From an uncultured Thermoplasmata archaeon (GTDB lineage: Archaea; Thermoplasmatota; Thermoplasmata; UBA10834), in assembly GCA_963787465.1 (NCBI GenBank), contig CAWBDD010000021.1, forward strand, positions 80,598 to 144,597: 64,000 nt of DNA. Direction: 5' to 3'. The notes beneath the pieces are model-generated. The model saw only the letters and a program-made list of their open reading frames with translations, had not been told where the DNA came from and made no database searches. This document shows, piece by piece, positions 27,003-63,448 of this stretch (position 1 is the first letter of the stretch; every line of letters begins with the position of its first letter). The translations under genes were made by a program, and so were the position numbers.

Positions 27003-27096
27003 GCGAAAACTGGGAGAGCTATACGGGGTGTTTATACTTAGCCCTCAGGGCACCGGGCCCGGACAGCGGAGCCGCGGACCGGGTCTAGCATATGTT

Positions 27097-27102
27097 TTAT
27101 AC
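27097..27102 (+). promoter_or_regulatory. Archaeal TATA box (TTTATA) ~30 nt upstream of tRNA-Arg
   Basis: TTTATA is at the canonical -26 to -30 spacing from the tRNA 5' end. Confidence 0.45.
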
Positions 27103-27131: not shown

Positions 27132-27251
27132 GGGCCGGTGGCTTAGACCGGATATAGCACTGGCCTTCTAAGGGCCCGAAGGGCCCGAAGGTAGCCAGTG
27201 GTCTCGGGTTCGAAAGGTGCCCGTGTGCGCCCGGAACTCCCGACCGGCCCG
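27132..27251 (+). tRNA. tRNA-Arg(TCT) with two predicted introns: a canonical 37/38 intron of ~22 nt and a second ~23-nt insertion between the T-loop and the 3' T-stem
   Basis: Acceptor GGGCCGG/CCGGCCC+G. D-arm GCTT..G18G19..AAGC. Anticodon stem CTGGC/GCCAG with loop CTTCTAA (anticodon TCT). T-arm TCGGG-TTCGAAA...CCCGA. Confidence 0.55.
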
Positions 27252-27319: not shown

Positions 27320-27427
27320 ATGAAGCGAAGCTCAAGGGCCTGGAAGAAGAAGGGCAAGCAGCGCTGGAAATGGCGCAAGAAGAAGATGCGCAGAAGAAAG
27401 AGGGCCCAGAAGCTACGAAAGAAGTAG
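27320..27427 (+). CDS. rpl41e: Ribosomal protein L41e
   Basis: 35-aa ORF MKRSSRAWKKKGKQRWKWRKKKMRRRKRAQKLRKK. It is extremely basic, typical of L41e, and is missed by the >=60 aa ORF track. An A/T-rich TATA-like CATATTAAAA lies ~45 nt upstream. Confidence 0.7.
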   Translation: MKRSSRAWKKKGKQRWKWRKKKMRRRKRAQKLRKK

Positions 27428-27451: not shown

Positions 27452-27626
27452 GGGGGTATGGGGTAACCTGGTATCCTTACGGGCTCCAGTTATGGGAATG
27501 ATTAGCGTTGGGTTAGCTGACCAGTGATGAGTAACTGGAGCGATGACCCATAGTCCGTAGAACGGGCGGAGTCGCTCTCCGCCTGGTGGAAACCCGTTGA
27601 TGGGGGTTCAAATCCCTCTGCCCCCA
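27452..27626 (+). tRNA. tRNA-Trp(CCA) with a 102-nt canonical (37/38) intron
   Basis: Acceptor GGGGGTA/TGCCCCC+A. D-arm GGGT-AACCTGGT-ATCC. Anticodon stem ACGGG/CCCGT with loop CTCCAG|intron|A. T-arm GGGGG-TTCAAAT-CCCTC. Confidence 0.7.
27490..27591 (+). ncRNA. Box C/D sRNA-like element embedded in the tRNA-Trp intron. Its guide is complementary to the tRNA's own anticodon loop, predicting Cm34 formation.
   Basis: A C-like AATGATTA box, a D' CTGA box and a perfect C' GTGATGA box are present. The guide GTAACTGGAGC is the reverse complement of GCTCCAGTTAC, spanning C34-C35-A36. The nucleotide 5 nt upstream of the terminal (A/C)TGA box pairs with C34. Confidence 0.5.
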
Positions 27627-27745
27627 CTCCTAGGCATAGCCATTGCGGCCCTCTGCCCGGAGAACCCAAATCTGAGCTACATGTGGTGCTGGCTCAGTTT
27701 ACACAGGGACACATTGAATCTCTGTAGCGACCAATTGTCAGGATT

Positions 27746-60111: not shown

Positions 60112-60753
60112 TCATCCACCTTCGAGCTTCTTCCTCATATCCTTGAGATTCTCCGTGGCGCCTCCAATGTTCATCTCTTCGATGAAGTGATCGGGCGACG
60201 TCGTCCTCAGGTAGTAAGTGCCCGCGGCGGCGACGGCGAGACCGGCGAACGAATCGAAGAAGAGGTCCAGCATGGTGTCGTCAAGCGAGTATTGCAGGTG
60301 CGTGCCCGTGAGCGCATCCATGGCATACTCGATCACCTCCCAGAACACGCCTATTGCCATGGTGAACATCACGATGAAGACGGCGAGGAATGCTGGTGGG
60401 AGACGGATGCTGACAACGTACTTGTCGATGGAGACGACGACCACGAACCCGAGGGCTGCCATGAGCGACGATGTCATCGCGTGGGTCAGATGGTCCCACC
60501 CTGCGACATCATCGTAGAAGCCAGAGTATCCACCGACCACGTGCAGGAATAGAGCGAGGACAAGCCAGAAGTTCAGTCCGGCAGGCAGCACCATCCTGAG
60601 ATCGCGCCTCAGTATGCTCGGGACCCCGCTTATGAAAAGGGAGAACAGAGCAGCTAGCAGCCATGTCATGTTGCCGGTGAGAGGCCCCGCGATGGCGACA
60701 CCCAGCATGCCCAGCTGCATAGCTCGCGAGATGATCTTCAGCCTCTTCTTCAT
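60112..60753 (-). CDS. Integral membrane protein (5-6 TM), tandem paralog of 60750-61415
   Basis: Shared blocks FWEVIEYAMDALTG (here) versus FWKVFEYVGGLVTG (neighbour). Confidence 0.55.
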   Translation of the reverse strand: MKKRLKIISRAMQLGMLGVAIAGPLTGNMTWLLAALFSLFISGVPSILRRDLRMVLPAGLNFWLVLALFLHVVGGYSGFYDDVAGWDHLTHAMTSSLMAALGFVVVVSIDKYVVSIRLPPAFLAVFIVMFTMAIGVFWEVIEYAMDALTGTHLQYSLDDTMLDLFFDSFAGLAVAAAGTYYLRTTSPDHFIEEMNIGGATENLKDMRKKLEGG

Positions 60754-61462: not shown

Positions 61463-63319
61463 TCAGGCGATCCGGAAGGAGTTCTCAGGCACAGTAATCT
61501 CGAAACGGGCGCCGCTTCCAGGCGTGCCGGTCTCCCTGATCGTCATCCCTGTGATCCCCAGGACCTCCCTCACGAAGTAGAGGCCGTAGCCGGTGTTCCG
61601 GCCGTATCCCCTTTCGAACACCCGCTCCTTCTCCTCCGGCGGTATCCCGGCGCCGTCGTCCTGGACTACCACGACGACCGACCCGTTGTCCCTCCTGAAC
61701 GAGAATTCCAGGCGCGTGACCTGGGAGTTGTGCCTTATGGAGTTATCGACGAGGCTGGAGAACGCTCGGCCCATCATCGGGTCCGCGAGGACGGACAGCC
61801 CGTGCACTCTCACATCGACCTTCATGCCGTCGAGGACATGTGTGTTGAGGCCCGCATGGATGGCCTGGCCGACATCGATCCACTCCGCACGGGACACACC
61901 CATGTCCCTGTAGTCGCTGGTGAGTTCGAGGAGCGTGCGCATCTTATCAACGGATTCCTTCGCGAGGGAGATGTGGTCCCTCACCAAGCCCTCGGTCGAT
62001 GTATCGGCGGCCATTTCAAGGCCCGCTGACATCACGGACAGCTGGTTCAGGAGGTCGTGCCTCGTTATGCTCCCGAGGAGCACCAACCTCCTGTTCGCCT
62101 GCAGCAAGGCCTGCTCGGTGAGCCTGCGCTTCGTGATGTCCCGCGCGATCCCCTCGATGGCCACAATCTCCCCGTTGTCGTCCTTGATCGGGTGGATGAT
62201 CTGCTCCGTCCAGACCGTGCTGCCGTCCTTCCTGACCCACCTCACCTCGAACGGCGCCCCGAACCTCGATGGGTCGGACCTCACGGCGCTCAGGGTCTCG
62301 CGGTCCTCTGGATGGATCAGCTTGAAGCCCAGGGACGGATCCTGGTAGTGCTCCTCCGGGGTGTATCCCACCATGGCGGTGCTCGTGGGGCTCACATACT
62401 CGAACTTGAAATCCGGCTTCAGACTCATCCGGTACAGGATGTCACCGCATTCCTCCGCTAGCACGCGGAAATGCGGCCCTCCGGCCCTGCCGGGAGTACC
62501 GACCGGAGCGAACCTGGAGATATCCACGAACGATGCGACCATGATGTCGGCATCCGGGACCTTCCTGATCGAGGCGGAGACCCGCCTCTTGTTGCCCCGT
62601 TTGTCGGCAATCATCATCTCGTGGATGTGCGGGCCCGACAGACCCTCGTCCGTCTTGGACGTGTGTGCGCCGACAATCCTCTCGCGGTCCTCGGAGGCGA
62701 TGAAGTCGAAGCCACTCATCCTCCCCTCGACCTCGCTCCGGGAGTACCCTGTCATCCTCTCGAACTCGGCGTTGACATGGGCTATGGTCCCGTCCGCTCC
62801 GAAGACCGCCATCGCGGTGCCCGTGTTCTCGAAGAGGGTCCTGTAGATCATGTCGCTCTGCTTGAGCCGTCTCTCGGCATCTGCCTTCTCGACCAGCAGC
62901 CTGACGGTCCTCGCGACCTCCGTGAAGTGCGCCTTCGGGTCGCGGCTCTTATACACGTAGAAATCAGCACCTTCCCGGAGAGCGAGCGAGGCGACATCCT
63001 CCCTCCCGGGGTCCGTCACGAGGATGAAAGGCACCGTGTTCCCCTGCACCCGCATGGTCTTCAGAAGACCGATGGAGTCAACCACTGGCGGTGAGTAGTC
63101 GGCTATGATGGCATCGAACTTCTGGGCATGGAGCGCGGCGGCCGCGCCCTCGGTCGTCCCTGCGCTCTCGACGGATATGCCTTCGTTGGCAAGAAGCGTC
63201 CTCGCTACTTCGAGATATGCCGAGTCGCTGTCCAAGTGAAGGACCTGGATGCCTATGGTTCCACCTGGGTGATGCCCCGATGGGACAGGGCACGGGCCTC
63301 TATTTATTCGTAGCCCCAC
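61463..63319 (-). CDS. Hybrid sensor histidine kinase: N-terminal receiver domain, two PAS domains, HisKA and HATPase_c
   Basis: Receiver IQVLHLDSD...AIIADYSPP...FILVT. PAS domains YRTLFENTGTAMAVFGADGTIAHVN and FRVLAEECGDILYR. H-box ITRHDLLNQLS. ATPase DDGAGIPPEE...GYGLYFVREV. The proposed start, GTG 63317-63319, is the first start that does not overlap tRNA-Ser. Confidence 0.8.
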   Translation of the reverse strand: MGLRINRGPCPVPSGHHPGGTIGIQVLHLDSDSAYLEVARTLLANEGISVESAGTTEGAAAALHAQKFDAIIADYSPPVVDSIGLLKTMRVQGNTVPFILVTDPGREDVASLALREGADFYVYKSRDPKAHFTEVARTVRLLVEKADAERRLKQSDMIYRTLFENTGTAMAVFGADGTIAHVNAEFERMTGYSRSEVEGRMSGFDFIASEDRERIVGAHTSKTDEGLSGPHIHEMMIADKRGNKRRVSASIRKVPDADIMVASFVDISRFAPVGTPGRAGGPHFRVLAEECGDILYRMSLKPDFKFEYVSPTSTAMVGYTPEEHYQDPSLGFKLIHPEDRETLSAVRSDPSRFGAPFEVRWVRKDGSTVWTEQIIHPIKDDNGEIVAIEGIARDITKRRLTEQALLQANRRLVLLGSITRHDLLNQLSVMSAGLEMAADTSTEGLVRDHISLAKESVDKMRTLLELTSDYRDMGVSRAEWIDVGQAIHAGLNTHVLDGMKVDVRVHGLSVLADPMMGRAFSSLVDNSIRHNSQVTRLEFSFRRDNGSVVVVVQDDGAGIPPEEKERVFERGYGRNTGYGLYFVREVLGITGMTIRETGTPGSGARFEITVPENSFRIA

Positions 63320-63342
63320 CGCGGGTGATGTGTGAGAACGAG

Positions 63343-63448
63343 CGCTGAGGGGGAGATTTGAACTCCCGAGGCGCAAAGCGCCACGAGCTTGCTAGCATGG
63401 CAACCTGAGTTTCCAGGCTCGCGCCTTACCGGGCTGGGCCACCTCAGC
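63343..63448 (-). tRNA. tRNA-Ser(GGA), class II, with a ~21-nt canonical intron
   Basis: Acceptor GCTGAGG/CCTCAGC+G. Anticodon stem CGAGC/GCTCG with loop CTGGAA|intron|A. Long variable arm GGCGC-TTT-GCGCC. T-arm GGGAG-TTCAAAT-CTCCC. A TTTAAATA TATA box lies 25 nt upstream (63471-63480 on minus). Confidence 0.65.

Follow-up and report, generated by a model that had tools for sequence, protein, structure and literature searches.

A tRNA gene interrupted at two sites was found on the forward strand of the window, a 64-kb stretch of DNA from an uncultured Thermoplasmata archaeon that was analysed as a whole. Positions 27132–27251 (+) are predicted to form a functional tRNA-Arg(UCU) gene with two short introns of the archaeal, protein-spliced type, a reading to which a probability of about 0.93 was assigned. 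The following features were delimited, from 5′ to 3′:

27095–27101 (+): putative TATA box TTTTATA, 31–37 nt upstream of the mature 5′ end, recognised by its position and conservation
27132–27170 (+): exon 1, tRNA positions 1–37, from the ARAGORN cloverleaf of the spliced sequence
27171–27192 (+): predicted intron 1, 22 nt, AGGGCCCGAAGGGCCCGAAGGT, at the canonical position 37/38, from a scan for bulge-helix-bulge (BHB) motifs
27193–27214 (+): exon 2, tRNA positions 38–59, from the ARAGORN cloverleaf and the orthologs
27215–27237 (+): predicted intron 2, 23 nt, AGGTGCCCGTGTGCGCCCGGAAC, at the non-canonical T-loop position 59/60, from the BHB scan and the intron-less orthologs
27238–27251 (+): exon 3, tRNA positions 60–73, from the ARAGORN cloverleaf and the orthologs

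The 5′ half of the gene reads GGGCCGG TG GCTT AGACCGGATA TAGC A CTGGC CTTCTA up to the 22-nt insert, and the 3′ half continues with A GCCAG TGGTC TCGGG TTCGAA, the 23-nt insert and T CCCGA CCGGCCC G. Exon 1 contains the 5′ strand of the acceptor stem, the D-arm with G18 G19 A20, the 5′ strand of the anticodon stem and the loop bases CTTCTA with the anticodon TCT. Exon 2 comprises A38, the 3′ strand of the anticodon stem (GCCAG), the variable loop TGGTC, the 5′ strand of the T-stem (TCGGG) and the T-loop bases TTCGAA. Exon 3 consists of T60, the 3′ strands of the T-stem (CCCGA) and of the acceptor stem (CCGGCCC) and the discriminator G; the CCA end is not encoded. The strings quoted in an initial annotation of this DNA, namely the acceptor GGGCCGG/CCGGCCC, the anticodon stem CTGGC/GCCAG, its loop CTTCTA..A and the T-stem TCGGG/CCCGA, are all present on the plus strand.

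Upon in silico deletion of 27171–27192 and 27215–27237, ARAGORN reported a 75-nt tRNA-Arg(tct) with stems of 7/3+1/5/5 bp, a perfect cloverleaf. Both the sequence and the ARAGORN drawing show a class I tRNA with a 5-nt variable loop, the anticodon TCT in a CT-NNN-AA loop and, behind G18 G19, an A20, which is an arginine identity element. A tRNA-Arg(UCU) is probably needed by the host, as AGA makes up 73 of the 1154 arginine codons (6.3%) in the genes of the window. Two other gene types were considered and excluded: a split or permuted tRNA gene, because all three exons lie in colinear order within a single stretch of 120 nt, and a self-splicing group I or group II intron, because the inserts measure 22 and 23 nt and no Rfam intron match was obtained in the region.

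The borders of both introns were determined with a BHB scanner, which searches for a helix between the exons, a central helix of 4 bp, two bulges of 3 nt each with the cut behind the second base, and a further helix inside the intron. At intron 1 the outer, central and inner helices measured 7, 4 and 6 bp. The motif consists of a 5′ bulge TA↓A, a central helix CTTC/GAAG, a 3′ bulge GT↓A and an inner hairpin GGGCC/GGCCC (arrows denote cuts, or the junctions left by them). The 22-nt insert proposed earlier in the anticodon loop is present at 27171–27192 with this strict BHB at 37/38. A direct repeat had also been noted within it, and GGGCCCGAAG does occur twice, the copies sharing one G, with GGCCCGAAG as the underlying unit, itself present two times. 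This repeat is a by-product of the intron hairpin (GGGCC/GGCCC) together with GAAG, the pairing partner of CTTC in the anticodon loop; it was found in none of the orthologs described below.

At intron 2 the scan gave an outer helix of 5 bp, a central helix of 4 bp and an inner helix of 5 bp. The outer helix is the T-stem itself, and the central helix is formed by T54–G57 (TTCG) with CGGA, including one G-U pair. It is flanked by the bulges AA↓A on the 5′ side and AC↓T on the 3′ side, and the intron is closed by the hairpin GGTGC/GCGCC. A BHB-motif search had been suggested as a check in the initial annotation, and it returned at both introns a motif of the strict hBHBh′ form, in which the flanking helices h and h′ have at least 2 bp.

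For long introns the relaxed BHB scan was very noisy, and for statistics a strict short-intron setting alone was used (length 15–30 nt, central helix of 4 bp, 5 bp or more in the flanking helices). Counting both strands, 20 dinucleotide shuffles yielded about 1.95 such motifs per window, and the real window contains three. Two of these lie 22 nt apart, exactly at the sites required by the cloverleaf, a placement far above what the chance rate of about two per window would give. A signature combining the T-arm with the 59/60 BHB was searched on both strands of about 330 kb, comprising the window and the ortholog loci. All 40 matches (40/40) were this gene and its orthologs, with no false positives, and within the same 330 kb there was no sign that the 59/60 intron has spread to other tRNAs.

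The only other strict short BHB-like motif of the window is situated at 60475–60500 (−), with a length of 26 nt, an outer helix of 8 bp and an inner helix of 5 bp. It falls inside an intact open reading frame (ORF) of 213 aa without a Pfam match, and its removal would shift the reading frame. Chance alone would yield about two motifs of this kind per window, and this one is therefore probably fortuitous.

Standard tools did not recognise the unspliced gene. ARAGORN at default settings called no tRNA in the raw window, and with its option for anticodon-loop introns it called two other tRNAs and missed the tRNA-Arg gene. Rfam at its gathering threshold did not report the gene in the raw window either. 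In permissive mode the Rfam tRNA model aligned to it with 18.6 bits (threshold 29), mis-pairing the acceptor and the T-arm. A covariance-model search, proposed earlier as a check on the two-intron structure, gave no better single-intron model: against these 18.6 bits, the one intron-less ortholog tested (L040) scored 67.3 bits on the same model, RF00005. ARAGORN, intron mode included, missed the gene in all 38 intron-bearing genomes described below and called a tRNA-Arg(tct) in 6/6 intron-less contigs. These missed calls of ARAGORN and Rfam reflect limits of the tools and not the absence of a gene. When the T-loop insert alone was removed, ARAGORN proposed a ‘tRNA-Pyl(cta)’ with a long variable arm. 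This call is spurious, the BHB and the orthologs placing the 37/38 intron there.

To collect orthologs, a pattern of the exons with 0–30 nt allowed at both intron sites was scanned over one genome per prokaryotic species. It matched 38 loci, all of them in metagenome-assembled genomes (MAGs) of uncultured Thermoplasmata or Thermoplasmatota; no cultured species was matched. These loci are considered orthologous on account of their shared synteny. A PAC2 proteasome-chaperone gene, with 52–85% identity to the window copy, adjoins the tRNA in 37 of the 38; the sequence of the remaining locus (L009) reaches only some 85 nt upstream of the tRNA, so that the PAC2 flank is missing. A tRNA-Trp gene follows the tRNA-Arg gene in 31/38 loci, and a gamma-aminobutyrate (GABA) aminotransferase gene is found nearby in most of them. 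Among the matches listed in a search for PAC2 homologs, all had at least 73% identity, and the cultured Methanomassiliicoccales were not reached. A TTT(T/A)ATA box is present at a fixed upstream distance in all 38 orthologous loci, mostly preceded by CCAAGG, an arrangement resembling a transcription factor B recognition element (BRE) with a TATA box. The element at 27095–27101 is taken to be the TATA box of the tRNA-Arg promoter.

One MAG contains two tRNA-Arg/PAC2 loci with differing introns (L037 and L038, on JAOTTD010000010 and JAOTTD010000063), which points to two strains in one bin or else to a real duplication.

The 59/60 intron, with a length of 21–23 nt, occurs in 38/38 of the genome orthologs. 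The 37/38 intron occurs in 32/38, with lengths of 20–27 nt and unrelated sequences. It is precisely missing in the other six genomes (L011, L015, L018, L021, L023 and L024), which read CTTCTA↓AGCCAG. Among the orthologs the exons, including the 5′ part that was left unconstrained by the pattern, are identical save for 1–3 D-loop bases; the introns are widely divergent.

Covariation across the 38 species indicates that both BHB motifs are preserved by compensatory changes. In the alignment of the T-arm with intron 2 (37 distinct sequences), 99.4% of cells pair, and when the 3′ partners were slid by 1–3 columns as a control, pairing fell to 12–60%. The inner helix of intron 2 has changes on both sides at four of its five pairs, as in GGCGC/GCGCC, GCATG/CATGC, GATGC/GCATC and GCGCCC/GGGCGC. 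For the anticodon arm with intron 1 (28 distinct sequences), pairing extends to 94.9% of cells, compared with 28–49% in the slid controls, and 38 cells carry double-sided changes. For both introns, every cell of the central helix (100%) is paired. A strict BHB surrounds intron 2 in 39/39 sequences, with inner helices of 4–6 bp. At intron 1 the inner helix is offset by a one-base bulge or mismatch in some orthologs, the central helix and both bulges being always intact.

Natural alleles without introns were obtained from metagenome contigs, which were scanned for the same exons with an uninterrupted T-loop and position 60 left free; an allele with the 37/38 intron only would also have matched. 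Six contigs were found, none of which has an intron at either site. They read ...CTTCTAAGCCAG...GGGTTCGAATCCCGACCGGCCCG, equal to the predicted spliced product of the window gene save for two D-loop bases. Position 60 is T in all six (TTCGAA↓TCCCGA), and the T-loop junction is therefore fixed at 59/60, where the BHB register also places it. The contigs are syntenic with the window: PAC2 is 77–79% identical, and 82% over a partial match in L045, the aminotransferase is present in three and the tRNA-Trp gene adjoins in four. Contig L041 (1.2 kb) holds no PAC2.

Three allele states were observed: both introns (32 genomes and the window), the 59/60 intron only (six genomes) and no intron (six contigs). 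No allele with the 37/38 intron alone occurs among the orthologs found (window, L002–L045). In a rough neighbour-joining tree of PAC2, the two-intron state is present in all deep branches, and the alleles with one intron or none are nested inside a single subclade. This suggests, as a hint only, that the two-intron state is ancestral for the clade and that precise losses occurred later in one subclade. The two-intron tRNA-Arg(TCT) put forward in the initial annotation is thus upheld by the in silico cloverleaf, the strict BHB motifs, the covariation over 38 species and the intron-less orthologs that match the product.

A course of maturation can be proposed on this basis. The conserved TATA promoter would drive a precursor of about 130 nt, in which the anticodon stem would be lengthened by a 4-bp helix (C32–C35 with GAAG of the intron) and the T-stem by another (T54–G57 with CGGA of the intron). 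Each 4-bp helix would lie between two 3-nt bulges and be closed by an intron hairpin, giving two strict hBHBh′ motifs. The endonuclease EndA would measure the 4-bp helix and cleave every bulge behind its second base, at 37/38 and at 59/60. An RtcB-type ligase would join the three exons and circularise the introns. The T-loop TTCGAAT and the elbow between D- and T-loop would form only after splicing, and CCA would be added afterwards, as it is not encoded. Archaeal EndA is known to recognise the BHB independent of its position in the RNA and to cut both bulges, leaving 2′,3′-cyclic phosphate and 5′-OH ends, upon which RtcB joins the exons and circularises the intron (PMC4090602, PMC6379350). 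Strict BHB motifs are substrates of the alpha4 and alpha′2 enzymes, the homotetrameric and homodimeric EndA forms of Euryarchaeota, which depend on them, and ‘Cluster II’ Euryarchaeota, to which the Thermoplasmata belong, are reported to encode only an alpha′2 EndA (PMC5829648). The EndA of the host is presumably of this homodimeric alpha′2 type, typical for this part of the Euryarchaeota. The strict hBHBh′ motifs at both introns, for the T-loop intron in 39/39 sequences, would fit such an enzyme.

Alternative explanations of the locus were weighed against the two-intron gene. It could be a decaying pseudogene or tRNA-like remnant in which the two inserts are random insertions, in line with the absence of a call by the standard finders and an Rfam score below threshold. 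Hardly any weight can be given to this, as the exons stay invariant over 38 species and the inserts diverge with covariation that preserves the BHB, the promoter and the synteny are conserved, and a flawless cloverleaf remains once the inserts are removed. The anticodon-loop intron might alone be spliced, the 23-nt T-arm segment being kept in the mature tRNA as an expansion. No positive support was found for this beyond the fact that alpha′2-type endonucleases are usually described as acting at 37/38, and it is very improbable: with the expansion, neither the universal 7-nt T-loop nor the D/T elbow would be preserved, the segment is bounded by a strict BHB with compensatory changes in 39/39 sequences, orthologs without it have a normal TTCGAAT loop, and archaeal EndA recognises the BHB independent of position (PMC6379350). 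The exact T-loop cut also had to be decided. The initial annotation had placed there a 23-nt insert at a non-canonical site, and length and site hold, but the border was off by one base. It had delimited the insert as GGTGCCCGTGTGCGCCCGGAACT (27216–27238, loop TTCGAAA, junction 60/61), where the BHB and the intron-less orthologs give AGGTGCCCGTGTGCGCCCGGAAC (27215–27237, loop TTCGAAT). An intron at 60/61 (GGTGCC...GGAACT) would also restore a 7-nt loop and the cloverleaf, and its product was accepted by ARAGORN. Such a cut is nevertheless practically out of the question, since the four bases before its 3′ bulge (GGAA) cannot pair with T55–A58 and no BHB results (by inspection; the scan reports only 59/60), and since the free position 60 is T in 6/6 intron-less orthologs.

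A further explanation accepts the splicing of the T-loop intron and attributes its persistence to selection, either because it disrupts an attachment site for integrases within the 3′ portion of the gene or because it postpones folding and modification of the T-loop until splicing is over. The 59/60 intron is indeed kept in 38/38 genomes, compared with 32/38 for the 37/38 intron, and mean column identity is 87% for intron 2 and 72% for intron 1. For tRNA introns of archaea, Randau and Soll (cited in PMC4090602) have moreover proposed a protective role against integration. A selected function is still quite unlikely here. Alleles without the intron exist in the same clade, which makes it dispensable; none of the 8-kb loci contained the 3′ exon a second time as an att-like repeat, and no viral contig of IMG/VR contained the 3′ part of the gene, be it intron-less or intron-containing. 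The higher conservation of intron 2 can also follow from its pairing with the invariant T54–G57. Neutral persistence of an efficiently spliced T-loop intron is favoured, and both introns may have no function beyond being tolerated.

Several points weigh against the reading as a functional, doubly spliced tRNA-Arg(UCU) gene. The splicing of both introns is a prediction from sequence. No EndA or RtcB gene was found in the 64-kb window (Pfam scan of its 50 proteins) or in the ortholog loci, and tblastn with the EndA of M. jannaschii (query checked against PDB 1A79) and of A. fulgidus gave no match in the DNA of the window and the ortholog loci; the enzyme type was therefore taken from the literature on related orders. 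Minimum-free-energy folding of the precursor did not favour the BHB cloverleaf, which reached −52.7 kcal/mol compared with −63.2 kcal/mol for the optimal structure. This says little, as the spliced tRNA was likewise not folded into a cloverleaf. A further tRNA-Arg(UCU) gene elsewhere in the genome is possible. The exon pattern was strict, and the figure of 38/38 describes one clade with identical exons and not all Thermoplasmata. The polarity of loss versus gain, finally, is derived from a neighbour-joining tree of a single gene.

Multi-intron archaeal tRNA genes with non-canonical BHB introns were reportedly described by Marck & Grosjean in 2003 and by Sugahara et al. in 2007/2008. The initial annotation considered multi-intron tRNAs a mark of some archaeal lineages; the kind is known, but the host lies outside the classic intron-rich groups, the Thermoproteales, the Thaumarchaeota and the DPANN (Diapherotrites, Parvarchaeota, Aenigmarchaeota, Nanoarchaeota and Nanohaloarchaeota) archaea. 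According to a 2014 review, multi-intron tRNAs occur in Crenarchaeota, Nanoarchaeum, Korarchaeum, ARMAN (archaeal Richmond Mine acidophilic nanoorganisms) and the two euryarchaea Methanopyrus and Methanothermobacter (PMC4033280), and 59/60 is among the listed non-canonical tRNA intron positions (PMC4090602). The genes of Thermoproteales and other Crenarchaeota, Thaumarchaeota and Nanoarchaeota resemble the present one in combining a 37/38 intron with a second, short (about 12–25 nt) and BHB-bounded intron, for which 59/60 is a listed position (PMC4090602, PMC4033280). The host here is, however, euryarchaeal and not a member of the TACK group (Thaumarchaeota, Aigarchaeota, Crenarchaeota and Korarchaeota), and both motifs are strict hBHBh′, whereas relaxed hBH or HBh′ motifs are common in Crenarchaeota.

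ARMAN-2 (Ca. Micrarchaeum) also carries an intron at 59/60, in pre-tRNA-Cys(GCA) and in pre-tRNA-Pro(GGG), the latter likewise with a strict hBHBh′ motif (Fujishima et al. 2011, PMC3239211). It differs in phylum and in the tRNAs concerned, its endonuclease is of the epsilon2 type with a specific loop for broad specificity, and its tRNA-Cys intron is of the relaxed hBH form (PMC3239211). Closer in taxonomy, at the level of the class, are the euryarchaeal genes counted in Table S7 of tRNAscan-SE 2.0, with 25 non-canonical introns and seven two-intron genes among 6970 euryarchaeal tRNA genes. Six non-canonical introns and one two-intron gene come from three genomes of Methanomassiliicoccales, and one non-canonical intron from five genomes of Thermoplasmatales; the table gives counts only, without naming tRNAs or positions (PMC8450103). 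When the literature was searched for tRNA introns of Thermoplasmata or Methanomassiliicoccales, nothing specific was found beyond these counts. The kind of gene is thus already known and its presence in the class at least numerically recorded; it is rare in this archaeal branch, and no mechanism is new here. Not found described were this gene, its conservation across dozens of uncultured Thermoplasmata species and the three-state allelic series.

Other RNA genes and ORFs were observed in the window. A tRNA-Trp(CCA) gene at 27452–27627 (+), 200 nt downstream of the tRNA-Arg gene, has a 102-nt intron at 37/38, in which 3/4 pairs of the BHB central helix are formed. The intron contains a box C/D small RNA at 27494–27549 (Rfam sR3, 28.8 bits, below the threshold of 41). 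When its D guide (ACTGGAGC) was paired by hand, the fifth base upstream of box D faced C34; the D′ guide faced position 39. This arrangement matches the known Haloferax tRNA-Trp system. The tRNA-Trp(CCA) intron with a box C/D guide RNA in Haloferax volcanii and other Euryarchaeota is BHB-bounded and handled by the same machinery as proposed for the tRNA-Arg introns (PMC4090602). The tRNA-Trp intron of the window differs from the latter by its 102 nt, its canonical position and its guiding of 2′-O-methylation; the tRNA-Arg introns are too short for comparable content. Between the two tRNA genes, an ORF of 35 codons (MKRSSRAWKKKGKQRWKWRKKKMRRRKRAQKLRKK, 27320–27427, +) is present, with an AT-rich element ATATTAAAA about 30 nt upstream, and its DNA is kept in several orthologous loci. 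We presume that this ORF resembles ribosomal protein eL41.

At 63343–63448 (−), ARAGORN called a tRNA-Ala(GGC) with an intron inside the anticodon. A better reading of the locus is a tRNA-Ser(GGA) gene that has a long variable arm (GGCGCTTTGCGCC) and, at 37/38, a 21-nt intron with a 4-bp central and a weak inner helix. It lacks the G3:U70 pair required of tRNA-Ala and scored 42.7 bits with Rfam. The start of a predicted PAS/histidine-kinase ORF of 637 aa (61463–63376) overlaps this tRNA-Ser gene by about 34 nt, and its start codon is for that reason probably wrong.

A fluoride riboswitch was identified at 1068–1131 (−) (RF01734, 45.5 bits, E = 2e-9). In the frame downstream of it, reaching from about position 1014 to 410, a short hydrophobic stretch similar to the end of a cation/proton antiporter is seemingly fused to a universal stress protein domain (Pfam Usp); the gene is not crcB. 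A large gene cluster extends over 33077–59390. It includes the hydrogenase maturation genes hypB-like, hypF, hypA, hypD and hypE-like with a hycI-like protease, several HdrA-like flavoproteins, HdrB/C-like CCG and 4Fe-4S proteins, two MvhD (FlpD) domains, and the small and large subunits of a [NiFe] hydrogenase. With these genes, the Thermoplasmata genome contains an electron-bifurcation module of the Hdr/Mvh type; marker genes of methanogenesis were not observed in the 64-kb window.

For the Thermoplasmata of this clade, the interrupted tRNA-Arg(UCU) gene means that their MAGs will seem to lack this tRNA when annotated with ARAGORN or generic covariance models, which affects quality criteria based on tRNA counts and inferences on codon capacity. 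It provides a clean comparative-genomics example of strict BHB introns that persist at non-canonical sites in a euryarchaeal lineage, and the natural series of two, one and no introns can be used for studying intron loss and the substrate range of alpha′2-type endonucleases. A more far-reaching proposal, which we regard as rather doubtful, is that the 59/60 intron is ancient, fixed across a large clade of uncultured Thermoplasmata (PAC2 identity down to 52%) and handled by an ordinary alpha′2-type EndA without a ‘specific loop’. If so, the gene would be a conserved natural counter-example to the textbook pairing of euryarchaeal alpha4 and alpha′2 enzymes with single canonical introns only, and no other non-canonical tRNA intron known from Euryarchaeota would be as stable as its T-loop intron, which might be kept because it shields the 3′ half of the gene from integration or gates the maturation of the T-loop.

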